From a virus (taxonomy: Duplodnaviria; Heunggongvirae; Uroviricota; Caudoviricetes), in IMG/VR virus record IMGVR_UViG_2531839265_000009, positions 1-10,116 of that record: a stretch of 10,116 nt of DNA. The stretch is one strand, 5' to 3'. This document shows, one piece after another, positions 1,201 through 10,116 of the stretch. Position 1 is the first letter of the stretch. The number at the start of each line of letters is the position of its first letter. The notes under the pieces are model-generated. The model worked only from the letters and a program-made list of their open reading frames with translations, did not search any database and was not told where the DNA came from. The translations under genes were made by a program, and so were the position numbers.

Positions 1201-1280
1201 CCTTCCCGGAAAGTGTCATAAATAGCGCGTTTTTGCGCGTACACGTACCCCCGGTGTTTCAGATCCTGGAAAGGACCCGT
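1201..1280. repeat. right arm of ~80-bp imperfect inverted repeat (partner at 468..547)
   Basis: See partner arm. This arm lies between the terminator at 1282..1307 and the TerS-like start codon at 1149. Confidence 0.8.
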
Positions 1281-3076: not shown

Positions 3077-3458
3077 TACTCACCCCCATGAGGCTGATTC
3101 ATACCAAGCGCAGCGCGTAAATGACTGCGTACCATCCAGCCGACTGACGGCTTCACCATGCACAACGGATCAAGGCCGATTTTTTTCCTGCCTCTGCGTT
3201 CTCCTCAAAGCGCGCATTAAGTGCGGCGATAATATCGGGGCTGATGTACACGGATACACCGCCCGGCTTCTGTGTTCCCATAAATGAGATTCCTCTTTGA
3301 CTAAAAACAAACATAACGAAAAGTCAGTCATGATTTTAATCATCGTTGCATTTTTTGCAATGATATTGACTGTTGTTGCAAATCATGAAATTATCATGCC
3401 GTGGTTTTACTCCTTGTACCACAGACTCATTCAGCATTAATCACGTTAGCGGCATGAA

Positions 3459-3492
3459 ATCCCCCGGAACCACATCCCGGGGGATTTTTTTT
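3459..3492 (+). terminator. plus-strand rho-independent terminator (no plus-strand CDS upstream; possible sRNA terminator)
   Basis: ATCCCCCGG (3459..3467) / CCGGGGGAT (3477..3485) 9-bp stem, followed by a T8 run on the plus strand. Confidence 0.6.
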
Positions 3493-3497
3493 GCGCA

Positions 3498-3524
3498 CAA
3501 AAAAGCCGGGAAAAATCCCGGCTT
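3498..3524 (-). terminator. minus-strand terminator downstream of ssb
   Basis: AAGCCGGGA (3503..3511) / TCCCGGCTT (3516..3524) 9-bp stem with a 4-nt loop. On the minus strand it is followed by TTTTGTG, a short U tract. It lies about 15 nt after the ssb stop. Confidence 0.5.
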
Positions 3525-3538
3525 CTGTCACTCGTTGC

Positions 3539-3961
3539 TTAAAACGGTATGTTATCCCCGTACGGATCATCATTACCCGCCTGTTGTTTTGCCCTGTTCA
3601 GCGCGTCAGTGGCCTGGCTCTGCTGGCCTTTTTTGCCGCCCGGGCGCGCCGTTCTGGCACTGATTACGCTGTCTGCGATAACCTGCCAGCCCTGCCGCGC
3701 TTCGCCGTTCTGGCCTGTCCACTGGCTTACCTGCATGTTACCCGCCACGCTCACCAGTTCGCCTTTGTGGTGTTTTGCCAGTGCGTCGGCCTGTCTGCCA
3801 AACGCCAGGACGGATAACCACATCGTCGCCGTTCCGTCATCTGCCTGGCTGCACGGCAGGGGAACCGCCATACTCGCCATCGCCATTTGTGTCCCTTTGC
3901 TGGTGGTCTTTAACTGCGGGTCAGTCGCCAACCGCCCGTAAGCCGCTATCTGTGCTGTCAT
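3539..3961 (-). CDS. ssb: single-stranded DNA-binding protein (SSB), plasmid/phage type
   Basis: 140-aa ORF. It has an OB-fold-like core (WLSVLAFGRQADALAKHHKGELVSVAGNMQVSQWTGQNG, compare E. coli SSB [40 protein letters not shown]), a Gly/Gln-rich linker and an acidic tail DDPYGDNIPF (compare DFDDDIPF). Its start overlaps the upstream gene stop as ATGA. Confidence 0.85.
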   Translation of the reverse strand: MTAQIAAYGRLATDPQLKTTSKGTQMAMASMAVPLPCSQADDGTATMWLSVLAFGRQADALAKHHKGELVSVAGNMQVSQWTGQNGEARQGWQVIADSVISARTARPGGKKGQQSQATDALNRAKQQAGNDDPYGDNIPF

Positions 3962-4209
3962 GCTGTCTGCTCTCCGGTTTTAACGTTGATGGTTGTCACC
4001 TGTTCCGCTTCGGCAATCTCCCGTTCTGTCAGCGTGGCAAAGTTTGCCGCCGCTGTGGTCATGAATGCGCTTATCAGTTCAGGATGCGCTTTCGCGTATC
4101 CTTCCCCGGCGTGGCGGTCTATCGTTCTGATTGCCACCTTTAAGGCGTGCTCTGTCATGTCTAATGCGCGATATTTTGGCGCTGTCTTATCTCTGCTTTT
4201 TCTGGTCAT
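3958..4209 (-). CDS. hypothetical protein (83 aa), translationally coupled to ssb
   Basis: Open frame whose stop overlaps the ssb start (ATGA). GAGGA lies immediately upstream of ATG 4209; an alternative internal start is M18. No family recognised. Confidence 0.5.
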   Translation of the reverse strand: MTRKSRDKTAPKYRALDMTEHALKVAIRTIDRHAGEGYAKAHPELISAFMTTAAANFATLTEREIAEAEQVTTINVKTGEQTA

Positions 4210-4218
4210 TCCTCACTG

Positions 4219-4412
4219 CTCCCCACTTTTACTACCCACTTTTTGAAATTACCCAACGTCTCCCCACTTCTTTTTTTGTGATTCTAACGTGATGTTTTTC
4301 AATGTATTTTTTATTCCCCACTTTTTGGGGTATATACAGGTGGGAAAGTGGGGAATCGCGTTTCAATTTTGTTAAATTCCCCACACTCCCCACTTTTACT
4401 ACCCACTTTTTA
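4219..4412. repeat. iteron-like repeat cluster with AT-rich spacer; candidate origin of replication
   Basis: 26-bp direct repeat CTCCCCACTTTTACTACCCACTTTTT at 4219..4244 and 4386..4411. Additional CCCCACTT(T) copies at 4262..4270 and 4316..4326. An inverted pair TTCCCCACTTT (4314..4324) / AAAGTGGGGAA (4345..4355). An AT-rich stretch at 4271..4315. The cluster lies immediately 3' of the helicase gene. Confidence 0.6.
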
Positions 4413-5783
4413 CAGTGGGCGCACGTCATCACCGTCAATAGCAATAACGCCATCACCTTCCAGCTTGTACAGCCAGCGCCGGAAGTGTTTCATCTCATAC
4501 CCCAGCTTTTTCATATCATCGCGCAACAACGGAATTGTGCATTTATCGCCGCGCTGTGTGCGTGAACGGATACAGCCCCATAGCGCGGCATGATTCTCCG
4601 TCTTGTTCCCGGCTTCCTCGATGCGCTCCAGTTCAACAGGTGGGCGCGGCTTATCCACAACCACCAGCGACGTGATTAACTCCTTGTCAGCGTCGGTAAA
4701 AAGCTCCACCACGCGTAAATCGTATGCAGCCTCTTTAAGTTCCTCCGCGTCCTTCATTTTGGTACAGGAGATAACCAGGGCTTCACTGTCTGCACCTTCC
4801 CGGCGAATACGGTATTCAGCGTCCAGAGATGCACGAAATGCACTGGAACCACGCGCCCCCTTTGTTTCATCCTTGCCGGAATGGTGAACCACCAGTACCG
4901 TGGCCCCTGTGCGTCGCTTCAGTTCGTCACATCCACGGATAAACGCCCCCATATCCCGCGCGTCATTTTCATCATTACCGCCAAAGCAACGCGCCAGCGT
5001 GTCCAGAATAATCATGCGTACCGGTTTACCCGTTTCCCGTTCAACCTGACGGGAAGCGATGACCATTTCATCAACATCAAGCGGGACCGCCGGAAAAATC
5101 GGGCGGTTTACCAGGTACAGATTTTTCACCCGTTCATCATTAACGATTTCCCATGCTTTGATACGACGAGGGACACCAATGCCACCTTCACCGACGACAT
5201 ACATCACCGAACCATGCGCCACCCTGCGGCCTCCCCAGTGGCGACCCGTGGCAACATGACACGCCCAGGAACACGCGAGGAATGATTTATAGGAACCGCT
5301 CGCGCCGTATGTGCTACACAATGAATTAGCCGGAATCACGCCCTTAACGACATAATCAAGCTGTGTGTCGTACCCTGCAGATCCAATACTCATTGGTAGC
5401 GTGGTTTTTCGCTGGCTGTATTGCTCGTCAGTAAGTATTTCCCCGCGCTCTGCCTGTTCGCGGATCCGTTGCAGGTAGTCGTGCCAGTTCTCCAGCTTCT
5501 GGCTGTGCATTCCCTCAGGGTAATAATTCGCATCCCGTACACCTGCCGCCGCCAGTTTTTGCCCGATGGCATTAATATTTGACGGCTTGATGTGGCCTGC
5601 CTTGTATAGCCGGACACAATAGCGACCATCATCGATGATTTTCAGGTCTGCCAGTTCGTCAAGCTGGCTGTCTCCCAGCCATACAGGCGGAACATTGTCG
5701 CCAGCAAGTCGCCCGTCCTGTTCCTGCCATTGTTTCGCGTGCGCCCAGGCATCACTACCCGCAAAAATAATGACTTCGGTCAT
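4410..5783 (-). CDS. replicative helicase, RecA-fold AAA_25 / RSF1010 RepA-like ATPase domain with an unassigned ~150-aa N-terminal domain
   Basis: 457-aa ORF. RMIILDTLARCF (Walker B-like), TVLVVHHSGKD and KGARGSSAF match the RepA/AAA_25 helicase pattern as I remember it (RLMVLDTLRRF, SIVFLHHASKG, ASRGSS). The P-loop region is GASGSYKS at 5283..5306. Confidence 0.75.
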   Translation of the reverse strand: MTEVIIFAGSDAWAHAKQWQEQDGRLAGDNVPPVWLGDSQLDELADLKIIDDGRYCVRLYKAGHIKPSNINAIGQKLAAAGVRDANYYPEGMHSQKLENWHDYLQRIREQAERGEILTDEQYSQRKTTLPMSIGSAGYDTQLDYVVKGVIPANSLCSTYGASGSYKSFLACSWACHVATGRHWGGRRVAHGSVMYVVGEGGIGVPRRIKAWEIVNDERVKNLYLVNRPIFPAVPLDVDEMVIASRQVERETGKPVRMIILDTLARCFGGNDENDARDMGAFIRGCDELKRRTGATVLVVHHSGKDETKGARGSSAFRASLDAEYRIRREGADSEALVISCTKMKDAEELKEAAYDLRVVELFTDADKELITSLVVVDKPRPPVELERIEEAGNKTENHAALWGCIRSRTQRGDKCTIPLLRDDMKKLGYEMKHFRRWLYKLEGDGVIAIDGDDVRPL

Positions 5784-5820
5784 TTTGTCGTGCGGCTGTT
5801 TTTTAAGTTCGGTGCCAGTT

Positions 5821-6120
5821 TCATTTTTTGCCCCTGAATGCGTTAATCATGTTTTTCATTTTCTGAATGTTCGCCCGTGCCCTGGCGTTACTGGTGGGCT
5901 GTTTGCGTGGTGTGGCCTGTACCAGTGAAAAATCGCGCCGGAACTGATAAACAGGCATCACGCAGTCATAGCTGTACCCATCACGGCGGTAAGTAACGCA
6001 TCGTCCCGCCACGCTTTTAATCGTTACCGTGCCGCCGTAGTTATCCCTGAAAATATCGCCGGGGCGGATTTCAGGCCGAGCGGGGCCGCTGGCAGTAAAG
6101 CCAGAATTTTTCTGTTTCAT
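5821..6120 (-). CDS. hypothetical small basic protein (99 aa) immediately upstream of the helicase gene
   Basis: Open frame with AGAGGA RBS 8 nt upstream of ATG 6120; lysine/arginine-rich C-terminus. No family recognised. Confidence 0.55.
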   Translation of the reverse strand: MKQKNSGFTASGPARPEIRPGDIFRDNYGGTVTIKSVAGRCVTYRRDGYSYDCVMPVYQFRRDFSLVQATPRKQPTSNARARANIQKMKNMINAFRGKK

Positions 6121-6190
6121 GGTTTTTATTCCTCTGCGCGGGTCTTGTTGTGTATTTCCATAACCGCGTTTAATTCATCAATAACCGGGG

Positions 6191-6334
6191 TTAACAGAGT
6201 GCTGAAAGCAGAAAATAAATCCCCCCCTGTTCGGCATGAACTTCGGTTAATTTAATTAATACCGCTTTCATTTCCAGTGCCCGATTTAATGCATTCTCAG
6301 AATGAATAAGAACATCGAAAGGGATTTCATTCAT
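6191..6334 (-). CDS. hypothetical small protein (47 aa)
   Basis: My own translation from ATG 6334..6332 gives MNEIPFDVLIHSENALNRALEMKAVLIKLTEVHAEQGGIYFLLSALC, stop TAA at 6193..6191. It is below the ORF-track length cutoff. Its start overlaps the stop of the upstream gene (ATGAATGA) and shares the start context GGTGAGCCATG with that gene. Confidence 0.4.
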   Translation of the reverse strand: MNEIPFDVLIHSENALNRALEMKAVLIKLTEVHAEQGGIYFLLSALC

Positions 6335-6791
6335 GGCTCACCACCTCCGGGAATTTTCTTCTGTAACGCGCCTCTGCAACATATTCCGCATAGTCCGACG
6401 CAATATTGAGAATATCCACACCCTCTGCCCTGTAGCCACTGGTACTGATAAGGAAAAATGCGGCTTTCATCATGTCGGCAACGCATAACAACGCATCGCC
6501 GGTGTGTTCTGGTGCGCCATCAAATTCCTGTTTCAGGGCATTAAAACGATCATCACGCATAACCCCCCCATTTTCACAATCAGCAATCAGGATGGCTTTA
6601 GCCTCATTCAGTGCCATATCAGCGGTAAGCTGTGCGTAGGCCAGCGAATGGGGGATTATTGCCCCTGTATACTCCGGCTCTCTGCTAATGTGTTTTTCCG
6701 CGGTTGCTGCCGTGCATGAAATATTAATCAGCGCGTGCATCAGCGTTCTGATAGCTTCGGCGGCTGCGTCCGGACGGGTGTTATTGCACAT
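6327..6791 (-). CDS. hypothetical protein (154 aa)
   Basis: Open frame with GGGGGTGAG RBS and start ATG 6791..6789. Overlaps the upstream gene by 11 nt and the downstream small ORF by 8 nt. No family recognised. Confidence 0.55.
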   Translation of the reverse strand: MCNNTRPDAAAEAIRTLMHALINISCTAATAEKHISREPEYTGAIIPHSLAYAQLTADMALNEAKAILIADCENGGVMRDDRFNALKQEFDGAPEHTGDALLCVADMMKAAFFLISTSGYRAEGVDILNIASDYAEYVAEARYRRKFPEVVSHE

Positions 6792-6987
6792 GGCTCACCC
6801 CCTGACGAATACGGGCGGCGAATACCATCACGCAGCCAGCCGGGGATTGCTGGCGTGCTTCCTGTTCGCTGGTGGCCTCAATGGTAATCACGCGCGGTTG
6901 TGCCGTACTCAGGGCGATAAAACGCCAGATATATTTATTCAGGTTGTGCGAGTCCCGCCCTTGCGGGTGTGTGGTATGATTTCTCAT
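6781..6987 (-). CDS. hypothetical small protein (68 aa)
   Basis: The 3' 68 codons of the long 6781..7425 frame, starting at ATG 6987..6985 with GAGG 5 nt upstream. The rest of that frame runs antisense through the RHH gene and is rejected. Stop TAA at 6783..6781 overlaps the next gene's start. Confidence 0.4.
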   Translation of the reverse strand: MRNHTTHPQGRDSHNLNKYIWRFIALSTAQPRVITIEATSEQEARQQSPAGCVMVFAARIRQGVSHVQ

Positions 6988-7068
6988 AGCTGCCTCGATA
7001 CTCTTTCTATCGTTGGTGGTTAGACGCCCTGCATGTGTGCCACCACTGCGGGGCGTTGCGTTTTTTGA

Positions 7069-7128
7069 TGTACACGTGTTAAGGTGTACACCTAACGAAC
7101 CAAAACATAACGCTATAGGTGTACACAT
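7069..7128. promoter_or_regulatory. three GTGTACAC-type palindromic operator-like sites upstream of, and overlapping the start of, the RHH gene
   Basis: TGTACAC at 7069..7075 overlapping the ACACGTGT palindrome at 7072..7079. Perfect 12-bp palindrome AGGTGTACACCT at 7082..7093. AGGTGTACACAT at 7117..7128, which overlaps the probable RBS (AGGTG) and the A of ATG 7127. Confidence 0.6.
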
Positions 7129-7321
7129 GTCAACAGTTATTAAGCGCGATAAAAAACAAAAAGGCACAGGAAAGGCCCCACCATTCCATATGCGTATAGT
7201 CCCTGAATTGAAGGAGCAGTTTGATAACGAAGCCAGTAACGATGGAGTAAGTCTTGCCAACTGGCTTAAAGAGTTAGGGCGCAAAGAACTGCTACGGCGC
7301 GGAATTGAGCCAAAGGGATAA
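7127..7321 (+). CDS. Arc/Mnt-family ribbon-helix-helix DNA-binding protein (64 aa)
   Basis: FHMRIVPELKEQFDNEASNDGVSLANWLKELGRKEL fits the RHH beta-strand plus two-helix pattern (compare Mnt FNFRMPMEVREKLKFRAEANGRSMNSELLQIV). ATG 7127 sits 5 nt after AGGTG. The longer 7013..7321 frame upstream has no RBS and runs through the operator palindromes. Confidence 0.6.
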   Translation: MSTVIKRDKKQKGTGKAPPFHMRIVPELKEQFDNEASNDGVSLANWLKELGRKELLRRGIEPKG

Positions 7322-7330
7322 CTATCACTA

Positions 7331-7861
7331 ATGTCGCAACCAGAGGAGTTGCGACTCCAAAGATTACATAGGAGATTAATGATTATGGGATTCGTCATTT
7401 TCATTGCGATCGTAATTTTATCCATTTACGTTCTTACCAAATTATTTATTTCAGAAAATTCACACGACAAAATTAGAGCCGAGGCATCCAGAAGAATTGC
7501 ACAAGAAGAGGCCGAACGGGCTAAGTTGTATGAAGAGAGAAAGGAATCATCTGATAATCCTGTTAATAAACAAAAACGAATAACAACACACGAAGATCAT
7601 TTTTATATGGATATTCATGGCGGTCACAAATATATATGTGTTGATGCTAAGTTAGTTTTTGAATATGCAAATTTAAAACACAACTATTTTCTTCACGCAT
7701 CTCACTATTTCCCTGAGTTAGAGTATGTTTATGGAAAAAACGAACATGGGAAAATAGTTAGAGTAGATTTGTACGATAAAAAAATTCAAGCTATTAACCC
7801 CGATACTGGCGAAAAAATACCAGGTGTGAGACGTTACCTACGACAGCACAAGATAAAATAG
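7331..7861 (+). CDS. single-pass membrane protein with ~130-aa His/Tyr-rich C-terminal domain, unknown function (AT-rich cargo gene)
   Basis: Open frame with one hydrophobic helix (MIMGFVIFIAIVILSIYVLTKLF) preceded by a basic segment (RLQRLHRRL), then a charged linker and a C-terminal domain. Strong AGGAG (7370..7374) favours ATG 7379 or 7385 as the real start; 7331 is the longest frame. Markedly AT-richer than its surroundings, by eye. Confidence 0.6.
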   Translation: MSQPEELRLQRLHRRLMIMGFVIFIAIVILSIYVLTKLFISENSHDKIRAEASRRIAQEEAERAKLYEERKESSDNPVNKQKRITTHEDHFYMDIHGGHKYICVDAKLVFEYANLKHNYFLHASHYFPELEYVYGKNEHGKIVRVDLYDKKIQAINPDTGEKIPGVRRYLRQHKIK

Positions 7862-7991: not shown

Positions 7992-8142
7992 GCCTGTTAT
8001 CCGGCAATTGTGGCGCTTCGTCACACGGTTGATATAATTCCCCTGCACTGATCCATTTTTTTCGCAGCAGGTTAATTGTTCACAAGGGCGCTCCGGCAAC
8101 GGGGTGCTTTTTGTTATGTTCATTGCGTTACACCTAACACCA

Positions 8143-8349
8143 TTACGCAGCCGTTCCGCGCGCTTCTTCCTCGCGTTCTTTCAGCCAGGCCAGCACCTCA
8201 TCTTCATACCAGCCAACACGGCGCAGACCGATTTTGAAGCCTTTCGGGAATTTTCCGGCGCTGATCATGTCCTGTAGCGAACTGTCTGCCTTGATGCGCA
8301 GAATATTTTTTACTTCCTGACGGGTAAGAATTTTTCTGATTACTTCCAT
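8143..8349 (-). CDS. alpA: AlpA-family phage transcriptional regulator (MerR-like HTH; excisionase/activator-like)
   Basis: 68-aa ORF. ILTRQEVKNILRIKADSSLQDMISAGKFPKGFKIGLRRVGWYEDEVLAWL matches the AlpA pattern (L..V....G.S..T.Y.....G.FP.....G.R.VGW...EV..WL). GAGGT RBS 9 nt upstream of ATG 8349. Confidence 0.85.
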   Translation of the reverse strand: MEVIRKILTRQEVKNILRIKADSSLQDMISAGKFPKGFKIGLRRVGWYEDEVLAWLKEREEEARGTAA

Positions 8350-8414
8350 CGTGTTTTACCTCGTTAATCCGGCGTATTCCGGTGATAAATACGGTAAAAC
8401 AGGGCAGGGCGGGA

Positions 8415-8454
8415 AAAACAGTACTCACCGTTTTAAAACGGTACTCACTGTTTT
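8415..8454. promoter_or_regulatory. two tandem 20-bp imperfectly palindromic repeats upstream of alpA (candidate operator)
   Basis: AAAACAGTACTCACCGTTTT at 8415..8434 and AAAACGGTACTCACTGTTTT at 8435..8454, differing at 2 positions. Each has inverted ends AAAAC.G / C.GTTTT around TACTCAC. Confidence 0.55.
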
Positions 8455-8482
8455 TATCTCATTGATTACGCTTTCTTTTTGC

Positions 8483-8513
8483 AAAAAAAATAGCGACCGC
8501 AAGGGGCCGCTAT
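8483..8513 (-). terminator. rho-independent terminator after the int / small-ORF transcription unit
   Basis: ATAGCGACC (8490..8498) / GGCCGCTAT (8505..8513) stem with one mismatch. On the minus strand it is followed by a T run (plus-strand A run 8483..8489). Confidence 0.6.
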
Positions 8514-8518
8514 TGTGA

Positions 8519-8761
8519 TTACCGCTTCCACTTCTTAGGTCGTCCACCACATTTAAGGCTGGTGGGTCTCAGCACCTTGTCGATGCTTTCAGCCAGATTT
8601 TTCGATGCGCCACGCGAGCGTAAAAAACTGACTACCTCGTGTTTTGTGGGGGCTGTTGATTTGTCTTCCGGATCGTATGTTGACCAGAATTCATGATTTG
8701 CCATTAACGCCAGTTGCAGTCCTTCACCGCAGACATTGGATGATTTTTCGTGCCAGACCAT
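8519..8761 (-). CDS. hypothetical protein (80 aa) between int and alpA
   Basis: Open frame only. Weak RBS. Basic C-terminus (GRPKKWKR). No family recognised; the exact start is uncertain. Confidence 0.4.
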   Translation of the reverse strand: MVWHEKSSNVCGEGLQLALMANHEFWSTYDPEDKSTAPTKHEVVSFLRSRGASKNLAESIDKVLRPTSLKCGGRPKKWKR

Positions 8762-8874
8762 TTCAATAAATCTCGATTTCTCATGAGTCGGGTTTTTCCT
8801 TGTCTGTTGAGGAGATAGAGGATTATACGATGGTTTGGCATGGTTTGCACTGGTTATACTGTTTTTTTGTACAG

Positions 8875-10116
8875 TTACACGGCACGGATACCCCTTTTAC
8901 CACTGGCTATGGTCACTCCGGTAGCTGCGGCCTCTACAAATTCCCCCCACCAGCGCATAAGCACCACGCGCTTTTCCAGGTAGTTACTTCGGTTATATGC
9001 TCGCCTTACCTCGTTCGTGTCCACGTGTGCGAGTGCGGCCTCGATTACGTCCGGCTCGAATCCTTCCTCGTTCGCTGCTGTACTGAATATGGCGCGTAAT
9101 CCGTGAGACACCAGCACACCAGCGTATCCCATCCGGCGCAATGCAGCGTTAGCGGTCTGGCTGCTCATTGGCAGCATTGGATTTTTAAGGCTGGGAAAAA
9201 CATGTTCCCTGTGTGCGCTGATTGGCTTCATTGTTTCCAGTACAGCCATCGCCTGACCGCAAAGAGGGATCACATGGTCACGGCGCATCTTCATGCGTCC
9301 GGCTGGAATCGTCCATGTTTCGGCATCGAGATCTATTTCTTCCCAGCGTGCGGCGGCTGCTTCGGCTGGGCGTGCTACGGTCAGCAGTTGCCACTCAATC
9401 AGCAATCTGGTTTGCCGTTCTATGCTGGCGACCGATAAATCGTGCATTAGCTGCGGTAGCTGTTCCGGTCGGATGGTTGGCATATGCTTTTTAGTGGGAG
9501 AAGGGAATGCCTTGCGGACGTTCGCTGCGGTGTTGATGTCAATCAGCCCACTGTTGGCAGCAAAATCCATCACTTCATTGATGCGTTGTAAAACGCGTTT
9601 CAGAGTTTCCAGGTTGCCACGCGCTTTAATGGGGGTGAGTATCTCGACAAAGCGGCGAGCGGTGAGGGTATCTATTGGCGTTTTTCCGATGTACGGGAAT
9701 ACGTATTTTTCCATGGATCGCCAGATATCCTTAATCGTGTTGTAAGCCAGATTCTGGCCTTTTTTCATCTCGTACCAGTCCGAGGCAACTTTTTCGAACG
9801 TGTTGCCCTTTTTCCTGCTCTCTGCTTCACGTTTCCGGCGTTCGTAGTCCTGTGGGTCAGTTCCCTTTGCTATGAGTGACCTGTATTCATTCCGTCGCTC
9901 TCTGGCATCAGACAGGGAAACATCATTTAGCGATCCAAGGCTGATAATAGTCCGTTTTTTATCTGCCGGGCGGTAGTACGTAAAACGCCAGATTTTTGAT
10001 CCGGAGGGCTTCACCAGAAGAAATAATCCTCCGCCATCCTGCAGGGTATATTCCTTTTCCCCTGGTCGTGCGTTTTTGATCTCCGTAATAGTTAGTGGGG
10101 GGGTTTTTCGTGCCAT
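8875..10116 (-). CDS. int: tyrosine site-specific integrase, P4-family (prophage CP4-like)
   Basis: 413-aa ORF. N-terminus YTLQDGGGLFLLVKPSGSKIWRFTYY is the typical P4-type integrase arm domain. C-terminal catalytic region contains the HGLR box (VSHGLRAIFSTAA) and a downstream Tyr (RRAYNRSNYLEKR). The ATG is the last three bases of the window, so its RBS and the attachment site lie outside. Confidence 0.95.
   Translation of the reverse strand: MARKTPPLTITEIKNARPGEKEYTLQDGGGLFLLVKPSGSKIWRFTYYRPADKKRTIISLGSLNDVSLSDARERRNEYRSLIAKGTDPQDYERRKREAESRKKGNTFEKVASDWYEMKKGQNLAYNTIKDIWRSMEKYVFPYIGKTPIDTLTARRFVEILTPIKARGNLETLKRVLQRINEVMDFAANSGLIDINTAANVRKAFPSPTKKHMPTIRPEQLPQLMHDLSVASIERQTRLLIEWQLLTVARPAEAAAARWEEIDLDAETWTIPAGRMKMRRDHVIPLCGQAMAVLETMKPISAHREHVFPSLKNPMLPMSSQTANAALRRMGYAGVLVSHGLRAIFSTAANEEGFEPDVIEAALAHVDTNEVRRAYNRSNYLEKRVVLMRWWGEFVEAAATGVTIASGKRGIRAV

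Follow-up and report, generated by a model that had tools for sequence, protein, structure and literature searches.

The island and its gene order

The window, i.e. the whole 10,116-nt stretch of DNA that we have analysed, carries a cluster of short repeats in a 200-bp intergenic gap, and every gene that flanks this cluster is located on the minus strand. The genes and the gap are listed below, starting from the integrase end:

8875-10116, minus strand: tyrosine integrase, cut by the end of the window
8519-8761, minus strand: small AlpA-like helix-turn-helix (HTH) protein
6781-7425, minus strand: protein with an Icd-like domain
5821-6120, minus strand: DUF4222 protein of 99 aa
4410-5783, minus strand: repA, 457-aa AAA_25 protein, annotated as 'helicase RepA family'
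4210-4409, no strand: whole candidate origin, the 200-bp gap from the repA stop codon to the start of the 83-aa gene
3958-4209, minus strand: 83-aa gene
3539-3961, minus strand: SSB

Beyond the SSB gene follow the genes of a lambda-E-type major capsid protein and of a lambda-D-type head decoration protein. The resulting order (integrase, AlpA-like HTH, Icd-like, DUF4222, rep, gap, 83-aa gene, SSB, capsid, decoration), with its single direction of transcription, has the layout of the Gram-negative phage-inducible chromosomal islands (PICIs), i.e. int, alpA, an accessory/Bro zone, a replication zone and a late zone; the organisation of PICIs, together with their size of about 10-15 kb, has been used here as the criterion for the assignment (PMC10111431, PMC6092414). 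As EcCICFT073 has this same gene order, we assign the window to the EcCICFT073 family of Gram-negative PICIs and not to the P4-like satellites; the ends of the island and its att sites fall outside the window.

Positions 3400-6200 gave no match in a megablast search of a phage collection, which argues for a chromosomal or satellite element rather than for a deposited phage. Parts of this 2.8-kb query are present in 1,902 of the 5,426 complete E. coli genomes, and the repA part of the allele family, mostly together with the gap, is found in 667 of them.

The closest relative, 99% identical, is locus L001 (NZ_CM143727.1), where the island is located at about locus positions 8700-19000, inserted between prophage head genes and P2-like tail genes; this arrangement corresponds to the 'helper-embedded PICI' configuration of Tommasini et al. 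2023 (PMC10111431). The island of L001 brings capsid and decoration genes of its own, of the lambda-E/D type, the order of which is the reverse of that in the helper. The integrase end of the window (8116-10116) diverges from this 99% identical relative, with the alignment ending at position 8115, so the copy in the window may use a different integration site. The Sp7 island of Sakai was uninformative for the comparison, since its allele is a different one, of the primase type.

Anatomy and conservation of the repeat cluster

The gap is bounded by the stop codon of the helicase gene (4410-4412, minus strand) and by the ATG of the 83-aa gene at position 4209. It contains the following elements:

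4219-4244, plus strand: left iteron pair, 13-bp units CTCCCCACTTTTA and CTACCCACTTTTT; copy 1 of the 26-bp repeat, with positions kept in 10 E. coli loci
4250-4270, plus strand: degenerate iteron TACCCAACGT (4250-4259), then the third left iteron CTCCCCACTTC (4260-4270)
4270-4312, no strand: AT-rich tract, 23% GC, candidate DNA-unwinding element
4313-4356, no strand: central module; iteron ATTCCCCACTTT (4313-4324, plus strand), 8-bp palindrome GTATATAC (4330-4337), degenerate inverted iteron (4338-4344, minus strand) and inverted iteron (4345-4356, minus strand)
4357-4378, no strand: another short spacer rich in AT (27% GC), which includes the conserved motif TTTTGTTAAATT
4377-4411, plus strand: right iteron set; degenerate copy TTCCCCACAC (4377-4386), then 13-bp units 4386-4398 and 4399-4411, the pair being copy 2 of the 26-bp repeat

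The two copies of the 26-bp direct repeat CTCCCCACTTTTACTACCCACTTTTT (4219-4244 and 4386-4411) are 100% identical, and each is a tandem of two 13-bp iterons; the right-hand copy runs 2 nt into the stop codon of repA. The inverted pair, ATTCCCCACTTT at 4313-4324 and AAAGTGGGGAAT at 4345-4356, is complementary at 12 of 12 positions over a separation of 20 nt. An extra copy of the iteron, TCCCCACTT, occurs at 4261-4269, while degenerate copies occur at 4250-4259, at 4338-4344 (minus strand) and at 4377-4386. The consensus of the iterons is yCCCACTTTT, with a core of ~9 bp and a tandem spacing of 13 bp; three iterons are counted on the left, two to three in the centre and two to three on the right, the flanking sets being direct and only the central pair being inverted. 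The earlier note had described a perfect 26-bp direct repeat, an inverted pair of motifs with further copies, an AT-rich segment between the repeats and an adjacent helicase gene, all of which are confirmed by this anatomy.

The cluster is far beyond chance: counted on both strands, the 10,116-bp window has seven copies of the CCCACTT core, all of them within 4222-4408, against an expectation of 1.24 per whole window, and none of 200 dinucleotide-preserving shuffles reached this number. The GC content of the tract at 4270-4312 is 23%, versus 49% across the window; the tract is a local minimum of duplex stability (40-mer dG of -44.7 kcal/mol versus a window mean of -55.2, sd 4.4), ranking only seventh among the least stable 40-mers of the window. 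As single-stranded DNA, the central module folds with a dG of -10.4 kcal/mol (z = -3.4). No known RNA family was matched in the whole window in a search against Rfam.

The gap was aligned with ten further E. coli loci, 76-97% identical over a 751-bp query (4150-4900). In all full-length gaps the iterons occur at the same offsets from the start of the gap, namely 13, 26, 54, 109, 130 (minus strand), 138 (minus strand), 181 and 194; across the 10 E. coli loci, the positions of the iterons are fixed and the spacers drift. The core between the inverted iterons (T.TATACA.GT; TATATACAGGT) is nearly invariant in this alignment (A1). The same plan occurs in five distant loci, from Xenorhabdus, Kosakonia, Pectobacterium, Pantoea and an Oceanospirillaceae metagenome-assembled genome (MAG): from the rep stop codon onwards, two to four direct iterons are followed by an inverted pair around a GTATATA-like core, by a spacer and by another two to four direct iterons, with an AT-rich stretch also separating the central module from the distal set of iterons. 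The cluster is located directly 3' of rep in 10 E. coli loci and in five distant ones.

Two of the loci depart from the common arrangement. In L012 (NZ_CP193495.1, locus positions 1284-1401), a natural deletion of 83 bp, apparently produced by recombination of the second left iteron with the central one, leaves a gap of 118 bp from which the AT-rich tract is gone; the RepA protein of L012 is the same as that of L005, and either this locus is defective or the AT-rich tract is dispensable. In L015 (Xenorhabdus beddingii), a second iteron cluster, of the CCCAC type (AAAGTGGGGAG, TTCCCCACTTTT), is located 220-300 nt past the rep stop codon, beyond the CTCAC-type origin, so that two origin specificities appear side by side.

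One CDS of 153 nt is annotated in the gap of L007, and open reading frames of the window also cross the gap. A coding function of the gap was rejected, because conservation tracks the positions of the iterons and not codons, and because a 1-nt indel occurs between close relatives.

RepA and the predicted reading of the iterons

The features of repA that are relevant to the reading of the iterons are the following:

4410-5783, minus strand: repA, putative initiator-helicase; N-terminal domain (aa 1-117), RecA-fold ATPase AAA_25 (aa 138-306), C-terminal winged helix
4413-4628, minus strand: C-terminal winged-helix domain of RepA (aa 386-457), predicted iteron reader, from an AlphaFold2 model
4485-4487, minus strand: codon of His433, immediately before the recognition helix (434-443)

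RepA matches Pfam AAA_25 with E = 3.5e-44, and the closest solved relative of its ATPase core is RSF1010 RepA (PDB ID:1g8y), through a weak match over residues 139-312 (E = 0.004). The first 116 residues of RepA are 64% identical to the Pri-Rep protein of EcCICFT073, while the remainder of the two proteins differs; the shared region (residues 1-117 of RepA at window 5433-5783, minus strand, versus L003:11242-11650) is a confidently modelled alpha/beta domain, which has no Pfam match and which may be an adaptor to a conserved partner. Among the RepA-type loci, the N-terminal domain occurs as two alleles that are about 45% identical.

The AlphaFold2 model of full-length RepA has a mean pLDDT of 66 and is confident at residues 1-117 and 390-457; a fold search with this model returned only RecA/RadA/KaiC-like cores and spurious matches to periplasmic binding proteins. 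Since the middle of the full-length model is poor, the C-terminal domain was modelled alone. The model of residues 386-457 has a mean pLDDT of 83.5 and consists of three helices followed by a β-hairpin; its structural neighbours are the winged-helix domains of DtxR/IdeR (some of them in complex with DNA), of IclR-type regulators and of Rpa2, and the C-terminal domain of MCM, with query-normalised TM-scores mostly of 0.55-0.8 and with E-values that are weak, as expected at 72 residues. Helix 3 (434-443) is located at the position of the recognition helix in the winged-helix fold, and residue 433 is located just ahead of it.

In the copy of repA in the window, a poly-A run near position 5800 consists of six A residues, versus seven in the relatives, and the reading frame starts at Met15. 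Owing to this 1-nt deletion, the first 14 conserved codons (MKLAPNLKKQPHDK; window 5784-5825, minus strand) form a separate short frame, the TGA of which overlaps the ATG of Met15 (ATGA). The loss of one A may be a sequencing error; otherwise it is a real frameshift, possibly with a coupled restart. With its start at Met15, this copy of repA might be impaired. Versions of RepA with 457 aa are also on record (P0005).

The protein that probably reads the iterons is indicated by natural variation. In three E. coli loci (L007, L010 and L013), all iteron copies have CTCAC and not CCCAC, and just one of the 471 columns of the RepA alignment, H433N, splits these three loci from the other eight. The comparison was widened to 80 loci with relatives of RepA, one genome per species, giving 91 loci in all, 72 of which could be scored; the residue that precedes the conserved F-x-R-W motif was compared with the dominant base at position 2 of the iteron (core C-N-CAC). 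Across many genera, the residue and the base are paired with zero exceptions in the 72 scorable loci: asparagine with T (25/25), histidine with C (17/17), lysine with C (23/23) and serine with G (7/7), i.e. CCCAC iterons accompany histidine or lysine, CTCAC iterons accompany asparagine and CGCAC iterons accompany serine. Loci that fall under the count threshold fit as well, for example N-type Xenorhabdus loci with CTCATTT.

Of the seven informative DNA columns that split the E. coli types, six correspond to one and the same iteron position, repeated in six different copies over 180 bp. In their winged-helix domains, the three N-type E. coli loci are each nearest to an H-type locus (96, 93 and 92% identity) and not to each other, so the switch between histidine and asparagine has occurred at least three times in E. 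coli; in each of these switches, all iteron copies have changed together, on different backgrounds. Linkage alone is therefore insufficient to account for the pattern, given the same change in six iteron copies and the at least three switches.

A further variation is seen in L017, L027, L037 and L091 (a MAG and Xenorhabdus), which have CTCATTT iterons instead of CTCACTT and share an asparagine, rather than glutamine or histidine, at a second position of the recognition helix (KLEN); this asparagine and CTCATTT may form a second covarying residue-base pair.

No alignment column that separates the iteron types was found in the DUF4222 protein or in the 83-aa protein. Both were rejected as binders of the iterons, on account of this lack of covariation and of their close similarity to the proteins of EcCICFT073, where the iterons are unrelated; the 99-aa DUF4222 protein, proposed as a candidate binder in the earlier note, is thus not supported in this role. 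A dedicated, non-helicase initiator was not found among the neighbouring genes. The covariation points to RepA itself as the likely reader of the iterons, through its predicted C-terminal winged helix. What it indicates is the co-evolution of this domain with the repeats, which implies binding and not the firing of an origin; the same iteron sites could also be sites of autoregulation or copy control.

Probable origin function and relation to known systems

The PICI origin is the stretch that directly follows the initiator gene on its 3' side, according to Fillol-Salom et al. (2018, ISME J; PMC6092414); for EcCICFT073, a plasmid with pri-ori was kept at the restrictive temperature significantly better than a pri-delta-ori and a delta-pri-ori construct (PMC6092414). 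EcCICFT073 shares with the window the gene order of int, HTH, Icd-like, DUF4222, pri-rep, gap, small gene, SSB, capsid and decoration; its origin gap (L003:12997-13284) is located in the same slot, the product of the next gene is 85% identical to the 83-aa protein, and its iterons are also direct and inverted, around AT-rich DNA. The two systems differ in the iterons themselves, which are GTCTACC/GGTAGAC in EcCICFT073 and CCCACTTTT in the window and are unrelated, and in the motor, which is of the P4-family primase C-terminal/SF3 type (TIGR01613) in EcCICFT073 and a RecA-fold AAA_25 domain in the window. A swapped rep-ori cassette would be expected to look like this, with a different motor and different iterons in the same slot.

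A RepA-type system is found among the four Pri-Rep alleles that are compared in Fig. S10 of the same study, one of which is from EcCIRM13514 of E. coli O145:H28 (PMC6092414). In EcCIRM13514, the gene of a RepA-family helicase precedes a gap that is also 200 bp long and shows the same plan of iterons, with the same downstream genes after it, and so a RepA-type allele has already been catalogued as a PICI initiator. The difference is one of specificity: the iterons of EcCIRM13514 are CTCACTTTT, in a gap that matches the N-type locus L010 in alignment A1, while the window has CCCACTTTT together with His433. From the gene order (six genes after alpA), we infer that the protein AHG11293 of Fig. S10 is the product of the repA gene of EcCIRM13514. 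Iteron sequences were not found in the text and supplements of Fillol-Salom 2018 (PMC6092414), where sequences are given in a figure only, and the RepA-type origin may be drawn in a figure of that paper.

The Rep proteins of the staphylococcal islands (SaPIs) provide a second comparison: in the model described for them, their C-terminal winged helix binds iterons that are located just after rep, the AT-rich centre melts, and Rep is a self-loading helicase (Qiao et al. 2022, PMC9371898). The window resembles the SaPIs in the location of the candidate origin directly downstream of rep, in the short iterons (6-12) with an AT-rich centre and in the winged-helix reader, which in the window is predicted. 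The SaPI Rep motors are, however, of the AAA+/SF3 type and not RecA-fold, the SaPI iterons have 5-6 bp and opposed flanks, in contrast with the ~9-bp core, 13-bp tandem spacing, direct flanks and inverted central pair of the window, and there is no detectable sequence relationship between the two.

P4, like the island, is an enterobacterial satellite with an initiator-helicase that acts on repeated sites, and the Pri-Rep motor of EcCICFT073 belongs to the P4 family. The octamer that is bound by the P4 alpha protein in ori and crr is TGTTCACC. This octamer was not found in the window, and so the view of the earlier note that the motif is not that of the P4 ori or crr is upheld; RepA does not match the P4-family primase model that is matched by the Pri-Rep of EcCICFT073, and no alpha-type primase/SF3 helicase was found in the window. 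Given the absence of the octamer and an AAA_25/RecA-fold initiator, an origin of the P4 ori/crr type was rejected. The lack of the P4 repeats is expected, as the element is a PICI with the gene order of PICIs and not that of P4.

RSF1010 (IncQ) has the RepA whose ATPase core is nearest by sequence (Pfam AAA_25). In RSF1010, the binding of the 20-bp iterons is left to another protein, RepC, and RepA serves as helicase only, whereas the helicase of the window has its own predicted winged helix and a 117-aa N-terminal domain. A classical iteron-plasmid origin (Rep_3/RepC-type, with 17-22-bp iterons and DnaA boxes) was rejected, as the core has ~9 bp, the spacing is 13 bp, and there is no perfect DnaA box in the gap. 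A DnaA-dependent origin was rejected as well: the sole perfect DnaA box, TTATCCACA (4651-4659, plus strand), is located inside repA, about 240 bp from the iterons; the count of such boxes is not above chance, and the V-D-K residues that are encoded there vary between alleles, so the box is probably a chance occurrence.

The gap at 4210-4409, directly 3' of repA, is very probably the vegetative replication origin of this EcCICFT073-family PICI, as the earlier note had proposed in describing a rep-dependent origin; this reading is supported by the synteny with the validated origin of EcCICFT073, by an architecture that is kept across genera and by the covariation of the iterons with the winged helix. 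In common with the PICI and SaPI origins, the gap is located directly 3' of rep and contains short iterons in two sets that flank an AT-rich region; the specificity of the iterons for their cognate Rep is suggested by the pairing in 72 of the 72 scorable loci.

By analogy with EcCICFT073 and the SaPI Reps, replication would proceed as follows. After induction by a helper phage, the island would be excised and RepA would be made; the C-terminal winged helix of RepA would read the ~9-bp iterons of the left direct set, of the central inverted pair around GTATATAC and of the right direct set. From the bound protomers, helicase rings would form, probably two that face in opposite directions, with the inverted central pair as the site of nucleation; melting would follow in the AT-rich tract next to it (4270-4312) and/or in the TATATA core, and RepA would load itself with no separate loader, before components of the host replisome take over.

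It is improbable, in our view, that the repeats are instead operators of the downstream operon (83-aa gene, SSB and capsid genes), bound by RepA or another regulator and with no function as an origin. The cluster is indeed located directly upstream of the ATG of the 83-aa gene (4209), from which the left iterons begin 10 bp away, and the covariation reflects co-evolution with the winged helix of RepA rather than replication as such. Iteron-binding initiators commonly autoregulate, as in the iteron plasmids. Nevertheless, neither a sigma-70-like promoter nor a terminator was found on either strand of 3900-4700, the unrelated gene that is located downstream in L013 has left the iteron plan unchanged, and a helicase gene with iteron sets around AT-rich DNA at its 3' end fits the PICI and SaPI origins; moreover, the syntenic region of EcCICFT073 is needed for plasmid maintenance (PMC6092414). 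A regulatory role could accompany the function as an origin. That the copy in the window is a decayed, inactive origin, or a recombination-prone repeat cluster with no current function, we consider very unlikely. The 1-nt poly-A deletion that removes the conserved first 14 codons of repA, the natural deletion variant of L012 with its 118-bp gap and the fact that many integrated PICIs may be defective would be in accordance with decay, but every iteron is intact and there is no difference between the two 26-bp pairs; the ATGA overlap could permit a restart that yields a RepA without its first 14 residues only, 457-aa versions of the protein are on record, and the allele family of repA is, mostly with the gap, present in the 667 complete E. 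coli genomes mentioned above.

Also to be weighed is a packaging (cos/pac) site, in which the repeats would be sites for the small subunit of terminase, like the R sites of lambda cosB; we regard this as hardly conceivable. A helper-like cos site is required in satellites of cos phages, and lambda cosB consists of repeated TerS sites and bent AT-rich DNA (PMC6092414). However, the sequence located upstream of terS in the prophage that surrounds the closest relative matches the window at 1216-1278 (plus strand; 63 nt, 89%) and, as an inverted partial copy, at 489-534 (25 nt at 96% and 15 nt at 93%), with nothing significant in 4210-4409; lambda cosN was not found in the window, and the repeats covary with RepA and not with any terminase. 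The segments 1216-1278 and 489-534 are probably the two helper-like cos sites of the satellite, as reported for EcCICFT073; this homology and the prophage-embedded position of the closest relative are the only hints that induction, packaging and transfer of the island depend on a helper phage.

An origin of this kind is already known and has been experimentally validated for another allele, and the current understanding of PICI replication is unchanged by the probable origin described here; the window adds a further specificity variant, i.e. His433 with CCCACTTTT. The new details may be the residue-to-base rule and the RecA-fold helicase with its own origin reader, as no literature text that describes either was found. 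We tentatively suggest, at somewhat less than even confidence, that an RSF1010-RepA-like, RecA-fold helicase, fused to its own winged-helix reader and to a shared N-terminal adaptor, constitutes a self-loading initiator-helicase, i.e. a second independent solution beside the AAA+/SF3 Reps of SaPIs, P4 alpha and EcCICFT073, with its specificity coming largely from one residue at the start of the recognition helix (histidine or lysine for C, asparagine for T and serine for G at base 2 of the iteron).

The analysis very probably places the origin of a satellite replicon that is very common in E. coli, and the rule of one residue and one base is testable: it could predict the compatibility of co-resident satellites or help to build orthogonal replicons. 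If this suggestion is true, a change of one codon and the concerted drift of the iterons would lead to new, mutually orthogonal satellite replicons, and such orthogonal specificities could explain the coexistence of several PICIs in one cell.
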